From Calditrichaceae bacterium (GTDB taxonomy: Bacteria; Calditrichota; Calditrichia; Calditrichales; JBFXGD01), in the NCBI GenBank assembly GCA_050173015.1, contig JBFXLE010000011.1:33232-97231 (forward strand): DNA of 64,000 bases, given 5' to 3'. Positions 7,415-32,109 of this stretch are shown piece by piece. Each line of letters opens with the position of its first letter. Position 1 is the first letter of the stretch. Made by a program: the position numbers and the translations under genes. The notes under the pieces were generated by a model. It was not told where the DNA came from and did no database searches. It saw nothing but the letters and a program-made list of their open reading frames with translations.

Positions 7415-9250
7415 GTGGGGTATAAAAGCACAGCGGAATGTGTGAATGATCTGGAAAAACATGGTCATCTTATAAAAATAAAAGAAGAAACAGATCCATA
7501 TCTGGAGATGGCGGAAATTCAGAGAAGGGTTTATGAAGCGGACGGGCCCGCAATATATTTTGAGCGGGTAAAAGGGAGTCCTTTTCCTGCCGTGTCAAAT
7601 CTGTTTGGATCCTTAGCCAGAGCAAAATTTATCTTTAGGGATACTCTTGATGCTGTAGAGAAATTAGTCGCTCTTAAAGGTGATCCCTCCCTGGCGGTAA
7701 GAAATCCATCAAAATGGAGCGCCATTTCAAAAACTTTGTATCATTCATGGCCGAAAAGAGTCTTCGGGGGCCCGGTACTTTCCCAACAAACAACGATCGA
7801 TCAATTGCCGCAGATCCAATCCTGGCCCGGGGATGGGGGTGCGTTTATCACCCTTCCTCAGGTGTACACTGAGCATCCCGAATTTCCGGGTATTATGAAA
7901 TCTAACCTTGGAATGTATCGAATTCAGCTTGCCGGTAACCGTTATGAATTGAATCATGAAGTGGGGCTGCATTATCAGATCCACCGGGGAATTGGAACCC
8001 ACCATGCCGCCGCGTTACGTAGAGGTGAGCCTCTTAAAGTCAGTGTCTTTGTCGGAGGCCCGCCCGCTAATACTTTCGCGGCGGTGATGCCTTTACCCGA
8101 AGGACTGCCGGAGGTTGCTTTCTCGGGCGCTCTGAACGGCAGACGTTTCAGGTATTTACGCAGAAAAGGATATACAATCGCGGCAGAAGCCGATTTTTGC
8201 ATAACCGGTACGGTAACGCCGGGCGATCTGCTTCCCGAAGGGCCCTTTGGAGATCATCTTGGATATTACAGCATGAAACATGATTTCCCGGTGCTTAAGA
8301 TCGATAAAGTGTATCACAGAAGGGATGCGGTCTGGCCTTTTACGGTAGTCGGCAGGCCACCACAGGAGGATACGGTTTTTGGACAGCTTGTTCATGATAT
8401 CACCGGACCGGTAATTCCTGAAACCATTGCCGGGTTAAAGGCTGTCCACGCGGTTGACGCCGCCGGAGTCCATCCGCTATTGCTGGCCATCGGCAGCGAG
8501 CGTTATGTGCCCTATGAAAATGACCGTCAACCCCGCGAAATTCTGACAATCGCTAACGCCATCCTTGGATTTGGACAATTGTCACTGGCGAAATATTTGT
8601 TTATTACCGCGCGGGAAGATAATCCCGGGTTGAATATCCACGAGATTGATGAATATCTAATGCATGTCTTTGAGCGGGTGGATTGGAAACGTGATCTTCA
8701 TTTTCAGACAAATACCACCATTGATACTCTGGATTATTCCGGCACCGGATTAAATGAAGGGTCCAAGGTAATTATCGCGGCAGCAGGAAGAAAGCGCCGG
8801 ACTCTTTTACAGAAATTACCGCTAAATTTGAAGCTCCCCGATGACTTTAACGATCCAAAGTTAGTCATGCCGGGGGTTATAACCATAAAAGGTCCAAAAT
8901 TTGAAGAAACAAAATTCGGATATCAGGCTATGGAACAACTTAACGCATGGCTGGATACCCACAAGGGCGTGGGCGGAATCGCGATGATCGTGGTGGTCGA
9001 TGACAGTAAATTTGTTTCTCAGAACCTGAAAAATTTCTTATGGGTGACATTTACAAGATCAAATCCGTCCCATGATATTTACGGAGTCGACAGCTTTTCT
9101 TCTCATAAACATTGGGGATGCGGCGGGCCGTTGATTATTGATGCCAGAATCAAGCCGCATCACGCGCCTCCGCTTGTCGAGAATCCGGAAATCACTAAAA
9201 GAGTGGATGCTCTCGGCGCCAGGGGCGGTAGTTTGCACGGAATAATTTAG
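7415..9250 (+). CDS. UbiD-family (prenylated-FMN-dependent) decarboxylase, long menaquinone-biosynthesis-type form
   Basis: GTG start 7 nt after AAGAGG, 611 aa. The N-terminus YKSTAECVNDLEKHGHLIKIKEE and overall UbiD-like layout are recalled from the family. Confidence 0.8.
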   Translation: MGYKSTAECVNDLEKHGHLIKIKEETDPYLEMAEIQRRVYEADGPAIYFERVKGSPFPAVSNLFGSLARAKFIFRDTLDAVEKLVALKGDPSLAVRNPSKWSAISKTLYHSWPKRVFGGPVLSQQTTIDQLPQIQSWPGDGGAFITLPQVYTEHPEFPGIMKSNLGMYRIQLAGNRYELNHEVGLHYQIHRGIGTHHAAALRRGEPLKVSVFVGGPPANTFAAVMPLPEGLPEVAFSGALNGRRFRYLRRKGYTIAAEADFCITGTVTPGDLLPEGPFGDHLGYYSMKHDFPVLKIDKVYHRRDAVWPFTVVGRPPQEDTVFGQLVHDITGPVIPETIAGLKAVHAVDAAGVHPLLLAIGSERYVPYENDRQPREILTIANAILGFGQLSLAKYLFITAREDNPGLNIHEIDEYLMHVFERVDWKRDLHFQTNTTIDTLDYSGTGLNEGSKVIIAAAGRKRRTLLQKLPLNLKLPDDFNDPKLVMPGVITIKGPKFEETKFGYQAMEQLNAWLDTHKGVGGIAMIVVVDDSKFVSQNLKNFLWVTFTRSNPSHDIYGVDSFSSHKHWGCGGPLIIDARIKPHHAPPLVENPEITKRVDALGARGGSLHGII

Positions 9251-9295
9251 CGCCAATTTGAAAAATTAAATTCTCTATCCAAAAAGGAGCGGGAA

Positions 9296-10654
9296 ATGAG
9301 CAGAAAAATAGTAGTCATCGGCGGTGTTGCCGCGGGTATGTCCGCTGCAAGCAGAGCCAGAAGAAATGATCCTGATGCATCGATCATTGTCTTTCAGAAA
9401 GAAAACGCGGTTTCTTACGGATCCTGCGGTTTACCCTATTATATTGCTGACGATATCAAAGAAGCTGAAACTCTGATTGCCATTTCAGCAGATGAATTCA
9501 GGCAGAAACGAAATATTGAAGTCCGTTTAAATCACGAGGGAATATCCTTTAATCCCAGGGAGAAGACGGTCGAAATACGAGATCTCGGGACAGGGATGAT
9601 TCATGACTATCCTTATGATAAATTAATTATTGCCACCGGCGCGCGGGCGGCGTTACCTCCCATTCCCGGCAAAGAATTAAAAAATGTTTTTGTGGTCAGA
9701 AATCTGACCGACGGACAGAACATAAAATCACACATCGAGAATGATCGTCCGGCAACTGCGGTAGTTGTGGGCGGCGGCTATATCGGTCTGGAAATGGCCG
9801 AAGCTCTCTCAAGGCAGGGGCTTCGTGTTTCGGTTGTCGAGGCGCAGGAACGGGTTATGCTGAACATAGACCCTGAATTATCTGAAAAAATTGAATCAGA
9901 AATGGAAGAAAAAGGGTGCAAAGTATATACTTCAAACGGTGTTCAGGCCATTCTCGGCTCCGATCGTGTAAATAGTGTGCGTTTAATGAACGGGGATGAG
10001 ATTGCCGCTGACATGGTGATTTTATCGGTTGGAGTAAAGCCAAATGTTGAATTTGCAATTACCGGAGGCGTACGTACAGGAAAAACCGGCGCCATAGAGG
10101 TCAATCAGAAAATGGAAACAAATGTCCAGAGCGTATATGCCGCGGGTGATTGCGCGGAAGTAAAAAATCTGGTTACGAATAAAATGGATTATATCCCATT
10201 GGGGACAACAGCCAATAAACAGGGGCGGGTTGCGGGTGATAACGCCAGCGGCCGGTTTGCCAGATTTTCGGGTGTGGCAGGTACAGCGGTGGTGAAAATT
10301 TTTGATCTGGAGGTGGCGCGGACGGGAATCACAACCACACAAGCTCTAAATTTAAAGATGAATCCACGTTCCGTGATGATAACCGGTAAATCAAGGGCGG
10401 GATATTATCCCGGTAAAGAAGATATTACCCTGAAATTAATATTCCGTGGAGATAACGGCCGGTTACTCGGCGCTCACATGATGGGTAAAGAAGGGGTAGC
10501 AAAACGGATTGATGTTTTCGCGACAGCTTTACAGCAAAAAATGACAGTGATGGAAATCTCAGAACTGGATTTGAGCTATGCTCCGCCGTATGCTCCGGTA
10601 TGGGATCCGATACTGATCGCCGCAAATCAGGCAGCTAAGTCATTCGAAAAATAG
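9296..10654 (+). CDS. FAD-dependent pyridine nucleotide-disulfide oxidoreductase (CoA-disulfide reductase / NADH oxidase family)
   Basis: AAGGAG RBS. Motifs: VVIGGVAAGMSAA (FAD), the single redox Cys motif SYGSCGLPYY, VVVGGGYIGLE (NAD) and AAGDC. Confidence 0.8.
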   Translation: MSRKIVVIGGVAAGMSAASRARRNDPDASIIVFQKENAVSYGSCGLPYYIADDIKEAETLIAISADEFRQKRNIEVRLNHEGISFNPREKTVEIRDLGTGMIHDYPYDKLIIATGARAALPPIPGKELKNVFVVRNLTDGQNIKSHIENDRPATAVVVGGGYIGLEMAEALSRQGLRVSVVEAQERVMLNIDPELSEKIESEMEEKGCKVYTSNGVQAILGSDRVNSVRLMNGDEIAADMVILSVGVKPNVEFAITGGVRTGKTGAIEVNQKMETNVQSVYAAGDCAEVKNLVTNKMDYIPLGTTANKQGRVAGDNASGRFARFSGVAGTAVVKIFDLEVARTGITTTQALNLKMNPRSVMITGKSRAGYYPGKEDITLKLIFRGDNGRLLGAHMMGKEGVAKRIDVFATALQQKMTVMEISELDLSYAPPYAPVWDPILIAANQAAKSFEK

Positions 10655-10661
10655 ACCGGTC

Positions 10662-11195
10662 TCATCGCTCAATATAATTTTTTAGCGAGGATAGATTCAA
10701 ATTTATCAGCTCATTGAATGCGGGCCGGACAATTATAAAGTCCATTAGTTTTGACAGTACGGGAGGCGCCATATAAGTGATTTCCCAAATGGCTTCCGTG
10801 CTTCCGTCCGGTAGTGCTTCCAGTACAATGGACTGCCGGATATTATGAATTAACGATTTCCTTACCGTATCGATCTGAGTAAAAGTGATCCGGTCAGATG
10901 ACTCGTAAATTTCTATCCGTTCTTTAATTTTCAGCTCTCTTCCGATGATTGAATAATCTACAACACGCAGGGATTTATTAAGTGAGACTTCGGGATAAAA
11001 TTCTATCTGCCGTATAGATTTATACCAATTCGAATATTCATTTGGTCCGGTAACCGCTGCCCAGACAACCGTTTCGGGCGCCTCAATTGTAATCGATTTC
11101 CTTATACTGGTTTCGGGATTTAATATGATCCCGGTTACTAAAATGATAGAAAATAGTACGATAAGAATTGCTGAAACCACAGCTGAAGTTTTCAT
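10662..11195 (-). CDS. Membrane-anchored SRPBCC (START/Bet v1-like) fold protein
   Basis: I prefer the internal ATG at 11195 (MKTSAVVSAILIV...). It overlaps the upstream TGA in an ATGA junction. One TM helix, then the ITIEAPETVVWAAV... pattern of SRPBCC proteins. The longer ORF-track start (11300) would overlap the upstream T9SS tail. Confidence 0.6.
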   Translation of the reverse strand: MKTSAVVSAILIVLFSIILVTGIILNPETSIRKSITIEAPETVVWAAVTGPNEYSNWYKSIRQIEFYPEVSLNKSLRVVDYSIIGRELKIKERIEIYESSDRITFTQIDTVRKSLIHNIRQSIVLEALPDGSTEAIWEITYMAPPVLSKLMDFIIVRPAFNELINLNLSSLKNYIER

Positions 11196-11971
11196 CTGAT
11201 TAAGAGCATCTTTTTGGTATGGATTTGTTTTTGTCCCGTCAGACGGTAATAATATAATCCTGACGCGGCCGGGATACCGTTTTCGGACTGTCCGTCCCAT
11301 AGAACGGTGTGTCTGCCCGTATTGTATATTCCGTCTGCCAGGCTACGAACTAATCTACCCCGGCTGTCAAAAATTTGCAAACTAATTTTTTGAGGACGGT
11401 CCAGTGAGAATCTGATGGTGGTTTCGGGATTAAAGGGATTGGGAAAATTGTGATTCAGCACAAAACTGATCGGATTTTCGGGACCGGAATCAACTGATGT
11501 TGCCAAAAGTCCGTCGATGGAAGCCCTGATATCGGAGATGTTTACGCCAAATCTTAAATATCTGATAATTCCTTCCTGATCGACCACTACACTGTAATCA
11601 TTAGCAACCTTATATGCAGCGCCGGTTTGTTGTCCGTTAAGCAGCAGAGGGTATTGAATCCCTGTACTGTTTTTAAAACTTTGGAGCTGTGAAGAGTTTC
11701 CGTTATAGTAATCAATTCCAACCGCCTGAAAAACGGTTTCACTATAATTATCCGCGATTTGGGTTTGCGTACTGCCGCCGGCAGCGAGACAAGACGGTCA
11801 ATTGTATCCGACAAAAAATAGATAGATTACTTTGCCTTTATAATCACTGAGTTTAAATGTGCCTCCGTCCAGCCGGTTTAAAGTAAAATCGGGCGCCGGA
11901 TCGCCTACCCCGGCAGTCAGTCCCGCTGAAAGGAGAAGTACCAATATTAACGGGAGAAACTTCGATTGCAT
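11192..11971 (-). CDS. Candidate selenoprotein: secreted thioredoxin-fold (TlpA/redoxin-like) protein with UxxC motif and T9SS C-terminal sorting domain
   Basis: The ATG at 11971 follows GAGGA. The product starts with signal peptide MQSKFLPLILVLLLSAGLTAG, then DPAPDFTL...YKGKVIYLFFVGYN. An in-frame TGA follows at 11800-11798 (codon 58), then PSCLAAGG...GIQYPLLLNG...VVVDQEGIIRY. The tail is NHNFPNPFNPETTIRF...LYYYRL...MLLIR. There is one continuous frame of 260 codons. The ORF track shows only the C-terminal 131 aa plus an out-of-frame ORF. Confidence 0.6.
11768..11786 (-). promoter_or_regulatory. SECIS-like stem-loop downstream of the in-frame UGA
   Basis: mRNA sense is CG-CUGCC-GGC-GGCAG-UA-CG. 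Five GC-rich pairs close a GGC loop and extend by two pairs across a UA bulge. The stem begins 12-13 nt after the UGA. Confidence 0.4.
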
Positions 11972-11990
11972 TATATATCCTCATTGTATG

Positions 11991-13505
11991 TTAAAATAGA
12001 CTATTTAAGCGAAATTCTAATCCTTCAAACGGCTGCACCTGATAACATATTCCGCCGGTACACGCATTACCCCCGCGCCGTTTCCCATAGAATAAGGCGG
12101 TAGAATGATTCTGATTAATCTGATAATTCAGGCTGAATCCAAGCCATGATTTGTAAATATCATTTTGAAGCGGATTTAGGGTGTTGTTTTCTACCGGATC
12201 ATTTGTCAGTTCAAACGCCAGACCACCCGCCAGATTCGGAGCGCGAGTGAACGACAAGCCAAGGTATCCGTTTTTTGTGGTGTGATTTTGCTCCTGATTA
12301 AATCGGTAGTTTCTGTCAAATTTTTGCGCCTGAATATCAACGGCAAGGCTCCAGATGCTGAGAAAATCATGCTCCAGGGTGATTCCCGCTGTCATCCGCT
12401 CATAAACATCGATGATCGGATCCTCTGACCAGTTAATAAAAGGTCTGATCAGAAAGTAGTCATTCAGGTAATAATTGATGTCAGCATGATATTCCTGAAA
12501 TGTGCGCTTAAAGCTGCCGAATTCATTAGTGGCTCTGGCGTGGTTTAGCGTTAATGTATTAAGTCCGTTGAGATTTATCAGGCTTTCGAGCTGAAAACCG
12601 CGTTCATCCTGCGGCTCGACCGAATGGGTGCTCCTGTTCAATAAAATGAAGGAATGCTCCCGGACAAGCTGCGGTGGATCATTAAAATTGAGAGTAAACT
12701 CATGATAATCCTTATATTCGGCTATTATGCTTATACGGTTATAACTAAAACTTACCGATGAATAGAAAGCATGCCGGCTTTCTGTGCCCAATCTAAAAGG
12801 ATCATTCGCGTCATCCAAATCCTGGACATATTCCACGTAGTATTGACTTCCGGAGATACCGTTGCCACTCAGGTTGAACCCTCCGAATTCGGTGATCTCA
12901 TTCTGGTAATCCTGACGGAGATACAACAGGCCGGGGGTCATTAAATTCCCTAAAGAAAAATTGATTTCACCTGCCTGAAGCAGGTTTGGGCGTCGCAAAT
13001 CACGGTCATTTGTCGGCGGGCGTGTTAAGTCAAGAGGTTTTCCGTATAATACTTTCGCCTGAAAAAAATCTCCGGTATATCCCGCCGAAACTCCTTCTAT
13101 ATCCTTGAAGAAACCGTAATGTTGTCTTGTACCAATGTCTTCAAAAGTAACACCCGGTATCTCATAAGTGCGCAGCAGGAGACCGCGTCCGAGAATGTCA
13201 AAAAAGTTTCCAAGCCTGATCTGAAAATGGTTGTTTTGGAATTTTATATATTTTTGAGAGATTTGATTATACCGGTGGTCATCATTGGTGACCTCGAACG
13301 ATTCAGTACGCAGACCGGCACTGAAATTATTATACCGATAATCCAGATTCATCTGATTGTATAAATTGTAATGCGCGGGCTGGCCACTGTCCGGGATGTT
13401 TCCCAGTTGATATTCAAGACGGTTGGATACGGAGATTTGGCCTGATGTGATTGCGCCGGTGAATAGAATCAGAACTAAAGGAAGCAAATAATACTTATTT
13501 TTCAA
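11991..13505 (-). CDS. Predicted outer-membrane beta-barrel protein (unknown function)
   Basis: Signal peptide MKNKYYLLPLVLILFTGAITSG, alternating aromatic/polar beta-strand pattern throughout, and a C-terminal ...EFRLNSLF ending in Phe. It overlaps the upstream TlpA stop. Confidence 0.6.
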   Translation of the reverse strand: MKNKYYLLPLVLILFTGAITSGQISVSNRLEYQLGNIPDSGQPAHYNLYNQMNLDYRYNNFSAGLRTESFEVTNDDHRYNQISQKYIKFQNNHFQIRLGNFFDILGRGLLLRTYEIPGVTFEDIGTRQHYGFFKDIEGVSAGYTGDFFQAKVLYGKPLDLTRPPTNDRDLRRPNLLQAGEINFSLGNLMTPGLLYLRQDYQNEITEFGGFNLSGNGISGSQYYVEYVQDLDDANDPFRLGTESRHAFYSSVSFSYNRISIIAEYKDYHEFTLNFNDPPQLVREHSFILLNRSTHSVEPQDERGFQLESLINLNGLNTLTLNHARATNEFGSFKRTFQEYHADINYYLNDYFLIRPFINWSEDPIIDVYERMTAGITLEHDFLSIWSLAVDIQAQKFDRNYRFNQEQNHTTKNGYLGLSFTRAPNLAGGLAFELTNDPVENNTLNPLQNDIYKSWLGFSLNYQINQNHSTALFYGKRRGGNACTGGICYQVQPFEGLEFRLNSLF

Positions 13506-14001
13506 CTTTACTCTCCGGCGAATTTAATATTTTTAGGATTTCCTCTTCAATGATATTTTCATCTCCGGAACGGTAGCCCTTGTGGATATAAATGATTTCA
13601 CGATCACTGTTGATAATCAGCAGGGTTGGTATGTTGATGATGCCCAGTTCGGAGGCAAAGGAGCTGTTAGGGTCAAGAAGAATGGGATAACTTATTTTAT
13701 AAGTCTTTGCGAAGGGTTTAATTTTGGCGGAATTACGCGGGCTGTCCACATTGATTCCGATAAACGCAACGCCGCTATTTTTAAATTGTTCGGAAAGTTT
13801 GTTCAATTTTGGAAGCGCTTTCGCACAAGGTTTGCACCAGGTGGCCCAAAAATCAATAACAGTTACATTCCCGCCTTTCAGTTCAGAAAAATTTGTCCAT
13901 TTATTGTCGATATTTTTTAATTTAAAATCAGGGATAGTTCTTCCGGCCAAGACGGTTTGCAACAGAATAAGAGTGAAATATATCATAAATCTGGAACGCA
14001 T
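13495..14001 (-). CDS. TlpA-family thiol:disulfide oxidoreductase (periplasmic thioredoxin fold)
   Basis: Signal peptide, then IPDFKL...VTVIDFWATWCKPCAKALP (WCxxC), then YPILLD and IPTLLIIN. Confidence 0.85.
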   Translation of the reverse strand: MRSRFMIYFTLILLQTVLAGRTIPDFKLKNIDNKWTNFSELKGGNVTVIDFWATWCKPCAKALPKLNKLSEQFKNSGVAFIGINVDSPRNSAKIKPFAKTYKISYPILLDPNSSFASELGIINIPTLLIINSDREIIYIHKGYRSGDENIIEEEILKILNSPESKVEK

Positions 14002-14147
14002 ATTTGTTACCTCGTTCTATTTTATATATATTATTTACTAAAGAGTCTAAGAAAGACTAACGCAGGTTTTTCCCAAAACATTCTAATAACTTGAATTGTT
14101 CACGCTTATCATACTAATTTGATGAATCAAAGATATTTAACTTCAGA

Positions 14148-14528
14148 TTGTTCATGAAAAAAAAACTAATCGAACTAAACGAAGGATTAGATAATCAGCA
14201 TGTCAACCTGCTCTGTCTTGAAGTAGGAAGAGATATTCAGGTAATACTCAGCGGTGGTGCGTCCCATATCGGCGCGATCGGATTGGGTGTGTGTTATGAC
14301 AGTGATAAGGCAAACTCATCGGTAATTGCCGTTCACGGTCACAAAGAGGACGATCTTGTAAAAAAAGCGGCATACAGGTTAAGCAAGGCATTAAGAAGAA
14401 ACGTAGCTGTTTCGGCCGGCATTCATTATGATGATTTAACCGGTAATGATATCTCTGCAATTCTCGCCAATGCGGATCTATTGATTGACCGGTTAATAGA
14501 ATTGCTCGAAAAAGACTCTAATCGTTAG
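14148..14528 (+). CDS. Hypothetical protein (weak recollection of LpdD-like small partner proteins of UbiD decarboxylases; unverified)
   Basis: 126-aa ORF with motifs GGASHIGAIGLG, HGHKEDD and AGIHYDD. Start uncertain (TTG 14148 or ATG 14154). Confidence 0.45.
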   Translation: MFMKKKLIELNEGLDNQHVNLLCLEVGRDIQVILSGGASHIGAIGLGVCYDSDKANSSVIAVHGHKEDDLVKKAAYRLSKALRRNVAVSAGIHYDDLTGNDISAILANADLLIDRLIELLEKDSNR

Positions 14529-22723: not shown

Positions 22724-25177
22724 TTACTTTATCAGCATCATTTTTCTAATCGAACTTTCGCGGTTATCAACGGACAGTTTATAAAAATAAAGCCCGCTTG
22801 ATAAATTTGAACCGTCAAATTTTACCTGATAGGTTCCGGTGGCCTGATTTCTATCGACCAGGCGCGCCACAGTTTGACCAAGGATATTATAAACAAGCAC
22901 ACTTACATGGCCGGGTTTGGAGATAGAATATTTGATGGTCGTTTCCGGATTAAACGGATTCGGATAATTTTGATTTAATTTGAAATCCGCTATAATAAAG
23001 CCGTCATCATGAACCGCAGTGGGAATTCCAAATTCACTGGCGCCGATATCAATCCGGTTGCCGTAGATCCTGTCCACGCCATTTATCGCGTACTGATACA
23101 AATTTAAACCGGTTGTATCCGGGGTACCGGCATCGATGCACGCGGAACCCTCCGAAAGGTTGTATAGAAGGGAATCGGCGAATTCCGGGGCGACGTCCAG
23201 ACAATTGGAATAAATCCCGCTGTACTCAATTCCGGCTCCGTCACCGCTGAAACCGGAGGAATCACCCTCGATGTCACAGTAATAAAAATCAGGATCACAG
23301 GTAGTTTCCAACCGGATCTGTGTGCTTTCATTGCCATAAATAATGTTATTGTACAACTCATTTACAGAAGTTGCCCGGAAACTAATTCCTCCGGATTGAT
23401 TTTCTACTATCGTATTGTTAATAAAACGAGAATTGGACTGATAGCTGTATATACCATAACTGGAATTATTGAAGATCAAATTGCTGACAAAATCCGCCTG
23501 ATTGGAGTATCCGGTATAAACGCCGGATGATGAATTATTGAATATTTTATTGTTATAGATCCAGGGTTGAGAATCGCTCCCGCCAATCAACATACCGTAA
23601 CCATAATTATCATGAATACCGCAGTTTTCGATCACAGGCGAACTATTATCAATATAAACGGCCGCATTGATCCCGTGATTAAAACGAATATCTGAATGAC
23701 GAATAAGCAATTTTGAAAATCCTGTGATGTAAAATGCCCCACCATCTTTGTTGATATTGTTGGGATCCCCGTAAGGATTTCCGTATTCTATAACGCAGTA
23801 GGAAAAAACCGATGTGTCGTTGGCCGCAGGAGTTTGATTAAATAAAATCCGGTTCCAGCCTTCTTGCTGATCCGCGGCGGTGAACTTAATAGAATCACTC
23901 TCCGCGCCTTCCGCGATAAGAGTCCCCTGCACATCGATATAGAAAAATCCCTGGAATATTATTTCGACACCGGGTTCGATAGTCAGTGTGGTCCCGTCTT
24001 TAATAATGATATTTCCATCGATCAGATAGGGTGAATTTTCTTTCCCCCACACCCCCGCAACGGTATCAGTTTTGACATAATATTCGTACGCGCCGATATC
24101 GATCAATCCATTGCTAAATCGTTGTTTACCGGATAGATCAAGAACAGGTAAGGAAGCGTCATAAATATCGTTATATCCCTTGTCCCGGCAGGGAGAAAGC
24201 TTCTGAAGGGCATAGGGGGCATCTCCGGTATTCATAAAGAGAGGATCACTATCAAGGCAATTGCTATAGATTCCCGTAAATTCTGCGCCTGCGCCGTCTC
24301 CGTTAAAATATTCTTTTCCGCCCATGATATTGCAATTGTAAAAATTAGGATCACAGGTTGTTTCCAACTGAATTTGTGTCCCGGTATTAGCATAAATAGT
24401 ATTATTGTACAAATTATTTACCGAATTCGCGCGGAAAAAAATTCCTCCGTTTTGATTTTCTACTATCGTATTGTTAATAAAACGAGAATTGGACTGATAG
24501 CTGTATATACCATAATTGAAATTATTGAATATAAGATTATTGACAAAATCCGCCTGATTGGAGTATCCGGTATAAACGCCGGATGATGAATTGTTGAATA
24601 TTTTATTATTAAAAATCCCGGGTTGAGAACCGCTCCCGCCAATCAACATACCGTAACCATAATTATCATGAATACCGCAGTTTTCGATTACAGGCGAAGC
24701 GTTATCAATATAAACGGCCGCATTGGTGCCATGATTCTGACGAATATCGGAATGACGAATGCTCAGTTTTGAAAAGCCAGTGATGTAAAAAGCGCCGCCG
24801 TCCTGACTGTTTGAATAAGGTTTACCGTATTCAATAATACAGTAATCGAACAAGGAACTGTCATTCGTAGCGGGCGTCCCGGAGAAAAGAATCCGGTTCC
24901 ACCCCTCCGTTATGTTGGATGCCGTAAACTTGATCGAGTCACCGGCGGTGCCCACTGCCTGAACGGAACCCTTGACATCAATCATGTAAAATCCTTCTGC
25001 AATAACGGTTGTACCGGGATTGACCCGCAGATGAACACCGTCTTCAATTAAAATGTCACCTTTTACAAAAACCGTGTCCGCATCCCACGCTGAATCGGTT
25101 GAAATCGTTCCGGAAACATCGATAGATGAGGCCAGAGTAAAAGATGTCAGACATAATACCAGTAAAATTTTGTACAT
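22724..25177 (-). CDS. Secreted protein with two tandem right-handed parallel beta-helix modules and a T9SS C-terminal sorting domain
   Basis: Signal peptide MYKILLVLCLTSFTLASS. Repeated NN(T/L)I(F/V)xN beta-helix rungs. C-terminal LNQNYPNPFNPETTIKYSI...GLYFYKL...MMLIK. Confidence 0.8.
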   Translation of the reverse strand: MYKILLVLCLTSFTLASSIDVSGTISTDSAWDADTVFVKGDILIEDGVHLRVNPGTTVIAEGFYMIDVKGSVQAVGTAGDSIKFTASNITEGWNRILFSGTPATNDSSLFDYCIIEYGKPYSNSQDGGAFYITGFSKLSIRHSDIRQNHGTNAAVYIDNASPVIENCGIHDNYGYGMLIGGSGSQPGIFNNKIFNNSSSGVYTGYSNQADFVNNLIFNNFNYGIYSYQSNSRFINNTIVENQNGGIFFRANSVNNLYNNTIYANTGTQIQLETTCDPNFYNCNIMGGKEYFNGDGAGAEFTGIYSNCLDSDPLFMNTGDAPYALQKLSPCRDKGYNDIYDASLPVLDLSGKQRFSNGLIDIGAYEYYVKTDTVAGVWGKENSPYLIDGNIIIKDGTTLTIEPGVEIIFQGFFYIDVQGTLIAEGAESDSIKFTAADQQEGWNRILFNQTPAANDTSVFSYCVIEYGNPYGDPNNINKDGGAFYITGFSKLLIRHSDIRFNHGINAAVYIDNSSPVIENCGIHDNYGYGMLIGGSDSQPWIYNNKIFNNSSSGVYTGYSNQADFVSNLIFNNSSYGIYSYQSNSRFINNTIVENQSGGISFRATSVNELYNNIIYGNESTQIRLETTCDPDFYYCDIEGDSSGFSGDGAGIEYSGIYSNCLDVAPEFADSLLYNLSEGSACIDAGTPDTTGLNLYQYAINGVDRIYGNRIDIGASEFGIPTAVHDDGFIIADFKLNQNYPNPFNPETTIKYSISKPGHVSVLVYNILGQTVARLVDRNQATGTYQVKFDGSNLSSGLYFYKLSVDNRESSIRKMMLIK
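23012..25121. repeat. Intragenic tandem duplication (two ~1056-bp / 352-aa copies) inside the beta-helix gene
   Basis: The string ttctactatcgtattgttaataaaacgagaattggactgatagctgtatataccataa occurs at 23402 and 24458 (offset 1056). Flanking several hundred nt are identical at most positions. Confidence 0.85.
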
Positions 25178-28191: not shown

Positions 28192-28740
28192 ATGAAAATA
28201 TTAATCGGAGTAACTTCATCCATTGCCGCTTACAGAATTCCAAACCTTATTTCATCGTTAAAAAAGGAAGACCATGAGATCAAGGTGATAGTAAGCGAAC
28301 ACGCAAAAGCCTTTGTGGCGCCGCAGGCGATTGCCGTTATGAGTCAGAATCCATGTTTCACGGACCATGATGAGTGGAATAACACCAATCGTGTACTGCA
28401 TATTGAACTGGCGAAATGGTGTGATGTTTTTCTGATAGCGCCCCTCTCAGCAAACACTCTGGCAAAAATATCAAATGGTCTGTGTGATAATTTGCTGACT
28501 TCCGCGGTTAGGGCGTTGGGCGATAAAAAACTGGTCATCGCTCCGGCGATGAATACAAGAATGTGGGAAAACGGGTTCACAAAAATTCATATCGATCTGC
28601 TCGGGCGGATTTACAATTTGGATATCATCGAACCGGTAAGCAAACGACTTGCCGACGGTGACGAGGGCATTGGCGGACTCGCGGAAGATGAAACAATCAT
28701 TCAGGCGATTCGTTTATTGAGTAATTCAGCTAAACAGTAA
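28192..28740 (+). CDS. Stand-alone HFCD flavoprotein (homo-oligomeric flavin-containing Cys decarboxylase family), phosphopantothenoylcysteine-decarboxylase (CoaC)-like
   Basis: Motifs ILIGVTSSIAAYR, HIELAKWCDVFLIAPLSANTLAKISNGLCDNLL and PAMNTRMWEN parallel the Dfp N-terminal domain. No CoaB domain follows. Confidence 0.75.
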   Translation: MKILIGVTSSIAAYRIPNLISSLKKEDHEIKVIVSEHAKAFVAPQAIAVMSQNPCFTDHDEWNNTNRVLHIELAKWCDVFLIAPLSANTLAKISNGLCDNLLTSAVRALGDKKLVIAPAMNTRMWENGFTKIHIDLLGRIYNLDIIEPVSKRLADGDEGIGGLAEDETIIQAIRLLSNSAKQ

Positions 28741-30391: not shown

Positions 30392-30646
30392 CCCGGTCGA
30401 TGGTTTGGGAAAAATTGTCCACTGATTTCACGGATTACACAGATTACTTAGAAAAAAAATATATCAATTTAATTCTAATCCGTGAAAATTAGTGAAATCC
30501 GTGGACCATCTTGAAAGGCCATCGAAAAAGAAACAAGCCCGCGAATTACACGAATTACCACTAAAATGAAAAAAAGTAATTATTAATTGGTGAAAATTAG
30601 TGAAATTAGTGGGCCATCTTAAAAAACCGCAAGAGAAGAAGAATTG

Positions 30647-30728
30647 TCCACAGATTGCACAGATTATTTAGAAAAATAACTATATAAATTTAATTCTAAT
30701 CCGTGAAAATCGGTGAAATCCGTGGACC
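30647..30728. repeat. Representative module A (imperfect 82-nt hairpin; 90-91 nt in copies carrying the extra 9-mer)
   Basis: The sequence is gtccacagattgcacagatta - A/T-rich loop tttagaaaaataactatataaatttaattc - taatccgtgaaaatcggtgaaatccgtggac. The outer 6 bp gtccac/gtggac are perfectly complementary. Confidence 0.85.
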
Positions 30729-30758
30729 ATCTTGAAAGGCCATCGAAAAAGAAACAAG

Positions 30759-30836
30759 CCCGCGAATTACACGAATTACCACTAAAATGAAAAAAAGTAA
30801 TTATTAATTGGTGAAAATTAGTGAAATTAGTGGGCC
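30759..30836. repeat. Representative module B (imperfect 78-nt hairpin, diverged homologue of module A)
   Basis: The sequence is gcccgcgaattacacgaattaccac - loop taaaatgaaaaaaagtaattatt - aattggtgaaaattagtgaaattagtgggc. It has the same arm/loop/arm layout, and the following linker starts with the same c/tatctt. Confidence 0.85.
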
Positions 30837-32109
30837 ATCTTAAAAAACCGCAAGAGAAGAAGAATTGTCCACAGATTGCACAGATTATTTAGAAAAATAA
30901 CTATATAAATTTAATTCTAATCCGTGAAAATCGGTGAAATCCGTGGACCATCTTGAAAGGCCATCGAAAAAGAAACAAGCCCGCGAATTACACGAATTAC
31001 CACTAAAATGAAAAAAAGTAATTATTAATTGGTGAAAATTAGTGAAATTAGTGGGCTATCTTAAAAAGCCGCAAGAGAAGAAGATTGTCCACAGATTGCA
31101 CGGATTACACAGATTATTTAGAAAAATAACTATATAAATTTAATTCTAATCCGTGAAAATCGGTGAAATTCGTGGACCATCTTGAAGGGCCATCTAAAAA
31201 GAAACAAGCCCGCGAATTACACGAATTACCACTAAAATGAAAAAAAGTAATTATTAATTGGTGAAAATTAGTGAAATTAGTGGGCTATCTTAAAAAGCCG
31301 CAAGAGAAGAAGATTGTCCACAGATTGCACGGATTACACAGATTATTTAGAAAAATAACTATATAAATTTAATTCTAATCCGTGAAAATCGGTGAAATTC
31401 GTGGACCATCTTGAAGGGCCATCTAAAAAGAAACAAGCCCGCGAATTACACGAATTACCACTAAAATGAAAAAAAGTAATTATTAATTGGTGAAAATTAG
31501 TGAAATTAGTGGGCTATCTTAAAAAGCCGCAAGAGAAGAAGAAATGTCCACAGATTGCACGGATTACACAGATTATTTAGAAAAATAACTATATAAATTT
31601 AATTCTAATCCGTGAAAATCGGTGAAATCCGTGGACCATCTTGAAAGGCCATCGAAAAAGAAACAAGCCCGCGAATTACACGAATTACCACTAAAATGAA
31701 AAAAAGTAATTATTAATTGGTGAAAATTAGTGAAATTAGTGGGCTATCTTAAAAAGCCGCAAGAGAAGAAGATTGTCCACAGATTGCACGGATTACACAG
31801 ATTATTTAGAAAAATAACTATATAAATTTAATTCTAATCCGTGAAAATCAGTGAAATTCGTGGACCATCTTGAAAGGCCATCGAAAAAGAAACAAGCCCG
31901 CGAATTACGCGAATTACCACTAAAATGAAAAAAAGTAATTATTAATTGGTGAAAATTAGTGAAATTAGTGGGCTATCTTAAAAAGCCGCAAGAGAAAAAG
32001 AATTGTCCTCAGATTGCACGGATTACACAGATTGTTTAGAAAAAAAATATATATAAAATTAATTCTAATCCGTGAAAATCAGTGAAATTCGTGGACGATC
32101 TTTGCTTTT

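Follow-up and report, generated by a model that had tools for sequence, protein, structure and literature searches.

The window, that is, the whole 64 kb stretch of DNA analysed, carries at 11192..11971 of its minus strand a gene which translates as 259 codons plus a terminal TGA when one in-frame TGA is read through, and which is the third of four genes in an operon. The features of this locus, together with a second gene of the window that bears on it, are as follows:

13495..14001, minus strand: operon gene 1, a TlpA-family disulfide reductase of 168 aa with a signal/anchor sequence and a WCKPC motif (Pfam AhpC-TSA, Redoxin, Thioredoxin_8)
11991..13505, minus strand: operon gene 2, a DUF6029 protein of 504 aa, predicted large outer-membrane beta-barrel (PF19494, AF2)
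11192..11971, minus strand: the whole gene of the candidate selenoprotein (translation, Pfam and NCBIfam matches, full-length CxxC homologues of 255-276 aa, AF2 model)
11903..11971, minus strand: predicted Sec-type signal peptide, ~residues 1-23 (MQSKFLPLILVLLLSAGLTAGVG), read by eye
11534..11908, minus strand: TlpA/ResA-like thioredoxin-fold redoxin domain, residues 22-146 (PF00578, PF08534, Foldseek, family profile)
11798..11800, minus strand: in-frame TGA, codon 58, predicted selenocysteine (Sec), first residue of U-P-S-C (motif 11789..11800; alignment to CxxC homologues)
11771..11785, minus strand: SECIS-like hairpin GCUGCC-GGC-GGCAGU (centroid fold and comparison of seven Sec forms)
11195..11446, minus strand: C-terminal sorting domain, residues 176-259, of the T9SS type A class, with the end KKMLLIR (TIGR04183, PorU match, AF2)
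10662..11195, minus strand: operon gene 4, an SRPBCC/Polyketide_cyc2 protein of 177 aa with an N-terminal transmembrane helix (PF10604, 38.4 bits)
22724..25177, minus strand: beta-helix protein of 817 aa, the second cargo-type protein of the window, with its sorting domain at 22727..22966 (PF18962)

In the NCBI annotation the gene is represented only by a 131-aa fragment (MGD9488300.1), named 'FlgD immunoglobulin-like domain containing protein'. The read-through product, modelled by AF2 with a mean pLDDT of 82, runs from signal peptide through redoxin domain and a linker (~residues 157-175, disordered and of low pLDDT in the model) to the sorting domain, and the tail quoted in the sequence-only reading is found in it at residues 172-259 (11195..11458). 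The N-terminus lacks a lipobox Cys, and similar hydrophobic N-termini are present in every homologue compared. It is most likely that this gene, split in public annotation, encodes one Sec-containing thiol-disulfide oxidoreductase.

The four genes follow one another in the order TlpA-like redoxin (named 'TlpA family protein disulfide reductase' by NCBI), DUF6029, Sec-redoxin and SRPBCC protein, with junctions that overlap or measure 19 nt: the DUF6029 gene shares 11 nt with the TlpA gene, its end is separated from the start of the Sec-redoxin by 19 nt, and the ATG of the SRPBCC gene overlaps the redoxin stop (ATGA). No terminator-like sites were found in 10400..14300. The DUF6029 protein is all-beta in its AF2 model (mean pLDDT 88.4, pTM 0.82), and Foldseek aligns it with the usher pores FimD/PapC at TM ~0.5-0.55 and with other barrels. 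Adjacency to DUF6029 is also seen at four related loci (L001-L003 and L004), while an SRPBCC gene is the downstream neighbour on the P0006 contig as well, with a weak match in L005.

The N-terminal half had been read as a thioredoxin-fold redoxin, and the profile and structure searches agree. PF00578 (AhpC/TSA) is the top Pfam match at 58.5 bits (cut-off 26), followed by PF08534 at 48.4 bits (cut-off 26.6), and the best Foldseek matches are the Bacteroides thetaiotaomicron structure 2ls5, which the family profile also matches at E 1e-24, and ResA (1su9/1st9), with TM 0.84-0.87 on the target and an rmsd of ~1.9 A for the ResA superposition. In the AF2 model, the CxxC-type motif U58-P-S-C61 lies where the first long helix (residues 60-71) begins.

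The AhpC/TSA match, the presence of the peroxiredoxins Bcp and AhpE among the structural neighbours, and the rubrerythrin and CoA-disulfide reductase genes in the same window would suit an exported selenol peroxidase acting against surface peroxides rather than a disulfide reductase or isomerase, and efficient peroxidases are known that use Sec for catalysis. However, the active site is of the CxxC type (GYN-U-PS-C) and the peroxiredoxin motif PxxxTxxC is absent; the nearest relatives in sequence and fold are oxidoreductases of the ResA/TlpA type, and the NCBIfam peroxiredoxin models score far under their cut-offs (NF006960 21 bits against 140, NF040737 17.7 against 270). We consider a peroxidase quite improbable.

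Codon 58 is part of G-Y-N-U-P-S-C; homologues have the first Cys of their CxxC motif at the aligned position. Scoring Cys against TGA at this position, as had been proposed for redoxin plus tail proteins, gave CxxC in 185 full-length relatives of the same architecture and TGA at the same aligned codon in seven independent, diverged orthologues, which share only ~40-50% identity and read UPSC, UPFC, USSC, USEC, UQSC or UPTC at the motif. Neither TAA nor TAG occurs at that codon in the seven Sec forms, the reading frame is open and conserved down to the sorting domain in all seven, and two loci from independently assembled genomes of the same species (L008 and L009) retain the TGA. When other genes with an in-frame TGA were sought across the window, this was the sole credible case. 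Two marks of a bacterial selenoprotein, an in-frame UGA aligned with the Cys of homologues and a conserved frame downstream, are present.

TGA is the ordinary stop of 15 of the 50 genes in the window, and therefore the genetic code is not reassigned; a UGA reassignment was considered and rejected on this ground. The same usage could be taken to mean that codon 58 is a true stop as well, in a decaying gene or between two small genes that encode 57 aa and 131 aa, and it would fit with this that only the 131-aa fragment is annotated and that the machinery for Sec was unseen in the window: selA, selB, selC and selD were found neither in the 64 kb nor in ~10 kb past each end, and no tRNA genes, tRNA-Sec included, were found in the window or in 12 related loci. 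SelD has been reported for Caldithrix abyssi (PMC3916229). A true stop would nevertheless require the same nonsense codon, always TGA, at the catalytic position in every one of the diverged orthologues, and it is opposed by the intact and conserved downstream frames with a covarying hairpin in all of them, by the retention of the TGA across assemblies, and by the nature of the 131-aa fragment, which has neither signal peptide nor active site. We regard it as extremely improbable.

The hairpin follows the TGA closely, with its loop at nt 22-24 when the U of UGA is numbered 1. In each of the seven Sec forms a hairpin of 5 or more base pairs (5-7 bp) is centred at nt 22-24; the stem sequences differ, and the background rate of a comparable hairpin is 17-20%. 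Six Sec forms have a loop that starts ~18-20 nt past the UGA; for the seventh (L101), the MFE fold has a larger loop of 7 nt that starts ~16 nt past it. The spacing rule of bSECISearch is reportedly 16-37 nt. Under a common alignment with a 3-nt loop, the first loop base is G in 7/7.

In the structural alignment, which was centred on the hairpin by the analyst, a choice that favours pairing, 87.8% of cells are paired versus 46.6% in shuffles, and none of 500 shuffles equalled this; double-sided stem changes amount to 22 cells versus 8.5 expected, a count likewise reached by 0/500 shuffles, and slid controls of the alignment gave 22-57% of cells paired. The hairpin is absent from both Cys-form genes checked (n = 2, the sole negative control). 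The hairpin is small, and the 76-nt region after the TGA folds no better than its shuffles (z = +1.14, not significant), so that the support for the hairpin comes from comparison between genes and not from thermodynamics. No Rfam family matched at gathering thresholds, and we know of no bacterial SECIS model in Rfam. A conserved G in the apical loop is a criterion for bacterial SECIS elements (PMC2398784), and what is found here is a stem-loop shortly 3' of the UGA with such a G. Taken with the orthologues, the covarying hairpin bears out the earlier proposal of a selenoprotein, and codon 58 very probably encodes selenocysteine.

The C-terminal tail had been assigned to the C-terminal domains of type IX secretion (T9SS) cargo, an assignment upheld by NCBIfam TIGR04183 (T9SS type A sorting domain), which matches residues 176-256 at 37.3 bits against a cut-off of 23, although Pfam PF18962 (Por_Secre_tail) remains 1.2 bits short (25.8 against 27). 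PF13585 (CHU_C) is also just short (26.4 against 27), whereas PF13860 (FlgD_ig) passes with 38.6 bits against 27. The tail alone matches the sorting domain of Porphyromonas gingivalis PorU (PDB 6za2, residues 1061-1136 of 1156) at E 1.7e-4, and the family profile does so at E 4e-5. AF2 predicts a six-strand beta domain over residues 184-257 (mean pLDDT 76-90 per 10-residue block), so modelled a compact Ig-like beta-sandwich that is related, as judged from sequence, to the solved sorting domains of RgpB, HBP35, PorU and PorZ. It stands at the extreme C-terminus of a protein with a predicted N-terminal signal peptide, and its end, KKMLLIR, resembles the KVIVK of RgpB.

The same kind of tail had been claimed for the beta-helix protein, correctly so, since residues 738-813 of that protein match PF18962 at 43.8 bits and its tail is 40% identical to that of the redoxin (E 3e-23). 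The tail also occurs on a subtilisin-like protease of a Caldithrix locus (L084), a clearly extracellular type of enzyme, and on an alpha-amylase of a Bacteroidota locus (L019). A search of genome contigs found it widespread in Calditrichia, Marinimicrobia, Cloacimonadota, Zixibacteria, KSB1, Ignavibacteria and Gemmatimonadota.

No T9SS core genes (PorK/L/M/N, SprA/Sov, PorU/V) were found in the 64 kb window or in ~10 kb past each end, nor was there any among the 12 large ORFs scanned, out of ~31 in the sampled Caldithrix/Calditrichia loci. The search for PorU in Caldithrix and other FCB MAG loci returned cargo-type proteins, with one PorU-like exception. A PorU-like protein in a Cloacimonadota MAG (L037) scores 90 bits on NF033707, whose cut-off is 420. 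Calditrichota is absent from the list in reviews of T9SS-bearing phyla (PMC11285876), TIGR04183 has been reported as a trait of the FCB superphylum, Calditrichaeota included (PMC5317091), and our literature search found no paper joining Calditrich- names or Caldithrix with T9SS. Because the core genes were unseen in the window and its flanks and Calditrichota is off the review lists, we infer the extracellular localisation rather than observe it, and the bacterial selenoprotein predicted here may be displayed at the cell surface or secreted.

These same absences would be expected if the selenoprotein stayed in the periplasm, where an Ig-like tail of the FlgD type would serve for binding or tethering and the TlpA/ResA-like reductase would be recharged by CcdA/DsbD. 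FlgD_ig indeed outscores PF18962, the top PDB sequence matches of the tail are to FlgD (E 1e-5), and such a location solves the supply of electrons, with a TlpA gene in the same operon; to our knowledge, a redoxin beyond the outer membrane has no established electron donor, which counts against export. On the other hand, TIGR04183 lies above its curated cut-off, the domain has the terminal position and the RgpB-like end, it matches the sorting domain of PorU itself, it is shared by proteins whose place of action must be outside the cell (beta-helix, protease, amylase), and HBP35 provides a thioredoxin-type protein that is genuine T9SS cargo. We take a periplasmic selenoprotein to be rather unlikely.

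HBP35 of P. gingivalis resembles the present protein in its layout: a signal peptide is followed by a thioredoxin-type domain with CxxC in the N-terminal part, and the protein ends in a T9SS C-terminal domain. By experiment it is translocated by Por/T9SS, glycosylated and anchored at the surface, and it reduces the disulfides of insulin in a CxxC-dependent manner (PMC2907840, PMC3120885). It differs in having Cys rather than Sec, in its greater length (344 aa), in its hemin-binding role and in its origin from Bacteroidota, and no HBP35 chain is among the PDB sequence or fold matches, where the redoxin half of the Sec protein resembles ResA/TlpA; the deposited HBP35 structure may cover the sorting domain only. 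The nearest solved folds are ResA/TlpA/CcmG and the pneumococcal Etrx1/2 (TM 0.76-0.87), extracytoplasmic CxxC reductases of which Etrx2 is a surface-exposed lipoprotein; unlike the protein described here, they are membrane-anchored beside CcdA/DsbD, which recharges them, and have neither Sec nor an outer-membrane export tail.

With regard to Sec, the closest likeness is to the Prx-like thiol:disulfide oxidoreductase selenoproteins (PF00578, UxxC/UxxU; Prx-like 1-3 of the GOS survey), which share the PF00578/PF08534 fold, the Sec that opens the UxxC motif, and a bacterial SECIS whose apical loop has a G. Reviews list them as a high-confidence predicted family of bacterial selenoproteins (PMC13188914, PMC2398784), and a PF00578 domain with Sec in UxxC fits the definition of that family (PMC13188914), a likeness drawn from its description. 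A C-terminal sorting domain is unmentioned in the descriptions of the family, whose described representative is WP_010940744.1.

The Cys-type proteins with redoxin and tail (e.g., MCH8299761.1, TFB11254.1 and MFC2113565.1) have 255-276 aa, the same domain order and the motif G-[YFW]-x-C-x-x-C; they are 34-48% identical, some of them in the same TlpA-DUF6029 context, and differ in having Cys for Sec and in lacking the hairpin in the two checked. Proteins that combine a redoxin with PF18962 form ~75 clusters at the 90% identity level, E <= 1e-30 is reached by 323 representatives at the 50% level, and such Cys-type proteins are common in metagenomes of the FCB group. Some of the relatives have already been named automatically, e.g., as 'redoxin domain-containing protein [Ca. 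Marinimicrobia]' or 'T9SS type A sorting domain-containing protein [Bacteroidota]', and no study of them was found in the literature beyond these names. The sequence-only reading had held a redoxin-Sec-T9SS architecture to be undescribed, which stands in part: the redoxin with a sorting tail is known, from these clusters and from HBP35, while the version with Sec appears undescribed, as our literature search gave no relevant paper combining a selenoprotein with type IX secretion.

Searches of genome contigs with the full-length alignment were swamped by matches to the tail motif N[FY]PNPFN, and three loci with apparently longer query coverage (L051, L088 and L065) proved to be unrelated proteins sharing the tail only. 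A search of metagenome contigs with the redoxin alone returned generic TlpA relatives of 27-36% identity, and the metagenome matches that stop at residue 59, considered as possible Sec forms, belong to another family of thioredoxins and have no TGA in frame.

The explanation that we favour, and hold to be reasonably probable, is a TlpA/ResA-like Sec oxidoreductase (U-P-S-C) exported by a type IX-like route and working with its operon partners. SelB would read the UGA as Sec, aided by the short hairpin ~13 nt downstream, and Sec would be the attacking residue of a thiol-disulfide oxidoreductase. The Sec pathway would take the preprotein through the inner membrane to fold in the periplasm, its C-terminal domain would be recognised by a type IX-like translocon of the outer membrane, and the protein would then be released or anchored at the surface, as has been shown for HBP35. 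Outside the cell, in reducing sediment, it could reduce or shuffle the disulfides of external substrates, e.g., detrital protein or polysulfide, its presumed partners being the periplasmic TlpA-like reductase, the DUF6029 outer-membrane barrel and the membrane-anchored SRPBCC protein.

To speculate further, this would be the first surface-displayed or secreted bacterial selenoprotein, standing at the outer end of a redox module of the envelope (a TlpA-like reductase in the periplasm, the DUF6029 barrel of the outer membrane, the surface Sec-redoxin and the SRPBCC protein) that lets anaerobic sediment bacteria of the FCB group reduce extracellular disulfides, polysulfides or metalloids, a proposal we put forward as doubtful in its entirety. 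Bacterial selenoproteins described so far are regarded as residing in the cytoplasm or periplasm, and a 2026 review of prokaryotic selenoproteomes contains none of the words 'secret', 'periplasm' and 'signal peptide' (PMC13188914). Because gene callers break genes of this kind into an N-terminal and a C-terminal piece, no fewer than 7 of them, and probably 12 or more, lie concealed in public data. The recurring link with DUF6029 would provide a first functional context for that family, which is predicted to form a large outer-membrane barrel. If true, a Sec enzyme with an outer-membrane export tail raises the question of what recharges a redox enzyme beyond the outer membrane, and would extend selenium biochemistry to the cell surface.

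At 11195..11458 (-) lies the 3' part of a longer frame, 11192..11971 (-). Read straight through, this frame has 259 codons and is interrupted once, by a TGA at codon 58 (window 11798..11800). Its N-terminus, MQSKFLPLILVLLLSAGLTAGVG, reads in translation as a typical Sec-type signal peptide, followed by PAPDFTL...GYN-[TGA]-PSC and, at the C-terminal end, by the tail quoted in the sequence-only reading. It is strongly supported that this is a single gene (the Sec-redoxin) composed of a signal peptide, a CxxC-type redoxin and a C-terminal domain of the T9SS type A class. According to exact matches, the source is a MAG of the Calditrichaceae, in the phylum Calditrichota of the FCB group, and its NCBI record holds only a C-terminal fragment of the protein, MGD9488300.1, named 'FlgD immunoglobulin-like domain containing protein'. 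The annotation is split at the TGA here, and likewise in 6/6 other loci of the selenocysteine (Sec) form. The halves in public annotation are:

11192..11587 (-), named 131-aa fragment
11798..11971 (-), unnamed 57-aa N-terminal ORF

The tail had been claimed to be a type IX secretion sorting domain, and this is borne out by profile, PDB sequence match and model. With NCBIfam TIGR04183 (T9SS type A sorting domain; curated cut-off 23), residues 176-256 reach 37.3 bits, and Pfam FlgD_ig PF13860 is also above its cut-off (38.6 vs 27), while Por_Secre_tail PF18962 (25.8 vs 27) and CHU_C (26.4 vs 27) are slightly under theirs. When the tail alone was searched against PDB sequences, the matches were the P. 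gingivalis PorU C-terminal domain (6za2 residues 1061-1136 of 1156, E 1.7e-4; 4e-5 with the family profile) and FlgD Ig-like domains (E 1e-5). In the AlphaFold2 model (mean pLDDT 82), residues from about 20 to 156 adopt a thioredoxin fold (pLDDT ~90), those from about 157 to 175 are a disordered linker, and 184-257 build a beta domain of six strands (block-mean pLDDT 76-90). The beta-helix protein at 22724..25177 (817 aa) does carry the same tail, as had been proposed (PF18962 43.8 bits; 40% identity between both tails, E 3e-23).

The N-terminal half scores above the Pfam cut-offs for AhpC-TSA (58.5 bits) and for Redoxin (48.4 bits). The closest solved folds include a putative disulfide isomerase of B. 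thetaiotaomicron (2ls5), B. subtilis ResA (TM 0.84-0.87, rmsd ~1.9 A), TlpA/DsbE-like proteins of Geobacter and Chlorobium, and the surface-exposed pneumococcal thioredoxin Etrx2. Since the redox motif is of the CxxC type and lies at a helix start, and since peroxiredoxin equivalog models score far under their cut-offs, the domain reads as a TlpA/ResA-like thiol-disulfide oxidoreductase rather than a peroxiredoxin. Four relatives of this domain (P0253, P0257, P0273, P0284) have two to three tandem copies per protein, each with CxxC, and no sorting tail.

All full-length homologues (255-276 aa) that share the three-part architecture, 185 CxxC forms among the sequences retrieved, have G-[YFWNA]-x-C-x-x-C opposite G-Y-N-TGA-P-S-C. 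Shorter database entries that begin right after the motif are, wherever the DNA was readable, gene-caller stops at an in-frame TGA. Six such genes, only ~40-50% identical to the window gene, have a complete frame of signal peptide, redoxin and tail with exactly one internal stop, which is every time a TGA at the same aligned codon.

Read-through genes of the predicted Sec form (position, motif with U for Sec) and their hairpins
Window gene, hairpin at 11771..11785: GCUGCC-GGC-GGCAGU
L004, 1041-1829, UPFC: CGGCUG-GUC-CAGCCG
L005, 5159-5938, UPFC: CUGCC-GGC-GGCAG
L096, 242-1030, USSC: GUGGCUG-GUC-CAGCCAC
L097, 5779-6609, USEC: UGAUUG-GUC-CAAUCA
L099, 5803-6591, UQSC: UGCUCCU-GGG-AGGAGCA
L101, 763-1566, UPTC: GCUGUG-ACGGCGC-CACAGU

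At least five further fragment clusters resemble TGA-split genes at the protein level, and the TGA is kept in two independent assemblies of the window's species (L008, L009). Because TGA terminates 15/50 window genes, genome-wide reassignment of this codon is ruled out.

All seven TGA genes have a SECIS-like hairpin of 5-7 bp, the centre of its loop lying 22-24 nt from the U of UGA. In six, the loop starts ~18-20 nt past the codon, and the minimum-energy fold of L101 has a larger 7-nt loop with a slightly earlier start. In an alignment centred on the loop by our choice, which favours pairing, standard pairs fill 87.8% of pair cells vs 46.6% in shuffles (0/500), 22 cells are changed on both sides vs 8.5 expected, and only 22-57% of cells pair when the 3' partner is slid by 1-3 columns. 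With the common 3-nt loop of this alignment, the loop opens with G in 7/7, which fits the conserved apical-loop guanosine used for recognising bacterial SECIS elements (PMC2398784). The hairpin is absent from Cys-form genes L001 and L182, a small negative control, being the only two with DNA. Among arbitrary positions, 17-20% have a hairpin of such size at such an offset, and the whole 76-nt region is no more stably folded than its shuffles (z = +1.14). With all evidence taken together, the TGA at codon 58 is very probably decoded as Sec, and there is strong support for Sec as the attacking residue in this redoxin of the CxxC type.

On the 176-kb Logan contig DRR538836 (L097), the orthologue adjoins DUF4292, TPR, PBP1 and RsgA genes, which are also found in the window 10-50 kb from the Sec-redoxin; this recurrence points to a related lineage in which synteny has been rearranged.

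Four genes are packed tightly here, the Sec-redoxin being the third, and no terminator-like site is present within 10400..14300:

13495..14001 (-), TlpA-family reductase, WCKPC
11991..13505 (-), DUF6029, overlapping the reductase gene by 11 nt
11192..11971 (-), Sec-redoxin, starting 19 nt after DUF6029
10662..11195 (-), SRPBCC/Polyketide_cyc2 protein with an N-terminal transmembrane helix

The ATG of the last gene overlaps the redoxin stop (ATGA), so the two are predicted to be translationally coupled. DUF6029 lies immediately ahead of the orthologue in L004 (Sec form; L004:3-1001, 38% identical to the window DUF6029) and in L001-L003 (Cys form P0001; L001:6481-7980), where two TlpA-like genes precede it. 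The SRPBCC gene is downstream of the orthologue on the contig of P0006 too, and L005 has a weak match to it. Neighbours differ around other orthologues, and therefore the module is recurrent, not universal. The DUF6029 model (30 homologues) is confidently all-beta (pLDDT 88.4, pTM 0.82) and resembles large outer-membrane barrels, among them FimD/PapC usher pores (TM ~0.5-0.55), AlgE and TonB-dependent receptors, none of which is a specific match; such a barrel is predicted with high confidence. This family, repeatedly found between a TlpA-like gene and a redoxin-plus-tail gene, is common in Calditrichota and in Bacteroidota such as Reichenbachiella.

Around the operon there are UbiD-family decarboxylase and CoA-disulfide reductase genes (7415..10654 (+), convergent), a PAC_bac/LpdD-chaperone-like gene (14148..14528 (+), divergent) and, 14 kb away, a PF02441 flavoprotein gene (28192..28740 (+)); this set could be a prenylated-flavin decarboxylase system. 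Between the iPGM and S13 carboxypeptidase genes, a 1.7-kb stretch (30409..32102) repeats a 229-bp unit head-to-tail 7.5 times with 96% matches; among the motifs in its units are CACAGATTGCACAGATT and AATCCGTGAAAATCGGTGAAATCCGTGG, it has no ORF of ≥40 aa in any frame, and an Rfam search of it found nothing.

The preprotein would be exported by the Sec pathway and fold in the periplasm, after which a type IX-like translocon would recognise the tail for release or surface anchoring, and the enzyme may perform thiol-disulfide chemistry on external substrates in a reducing sediment habitat. We infer this because the same tail is present on proteins which need to act outside the cell (the window beta-helix protein, a subtilisin-like protease of a Caldithrix locus and an amylase of a Bacteroidota locus), because TIGR04183 is an FCB-wide trait, Calditrichaeota included (PMC5317091), and because of the HBP35 precedent. 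Neither T9SS core genes nor selA/B/C/D were found in the window or ~10 kb past each end, and 12 large ORFs from Caldithrix/Calditrichia loci yielded cargo and no T9SS machinery; SelD is reported for Caldithrix abyssi (PMC3916229). Since the machinery was not found in the regions scanned, retention of the protein in the periplasm keeps some weight, although we consider it unlikely compared with export. In a Cloacimonadota MAG (L037:366-3986, JAJBAW010000027.1), a sorting tail is also carried by a 1206-aa protein that matches the middle section (profile positions 319-745) of the PorU sortase model NF033707 with 90 bits (cut-off 420) and is possibly a divergent PorU outside Bacteroidota.

Bacterial selenoprotein families listed with high confidence include 'Prx-like thiol:disulfide oxidoreductase' (PMC13188914; PMC2398784), to which the Sec-redoxin would belong by the definition of PF00578 plus UxxC. 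Its closest working analogue is P. gingivalis HBP35, which shares the plan of a thioredoxin motif plus C-terminal sorting domain, is exported by Por/T9SS and surface-glycosylated, and reduces insulin in a CxxC-dependent manner (PMC2907840, PMC3120885), although outside the tail no sequence relationship was detected. Redoxin-plus-tail proteins of the Cys type are numerous (~75 clusters at 90% identity; 323 representatives at E ≤ 1e-30), some with automatic names. Thus, tail, redoxin and Sec as read from sequence are supported, but the architecture, which had not been recognised as described, is known from these clusters and HBP35. Our literature search found no report that pairs Sec with a T9SS tail. 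Judged from its homologues, the protein appears to be a Sec variant within a redoxin-plus-tail family that is widespread yet unstudied. Encoded in a recurring envelope operon, it would be a bacterial selenoprotein, predicted to be secreted or at the surface, that mis-annotation has concealed.
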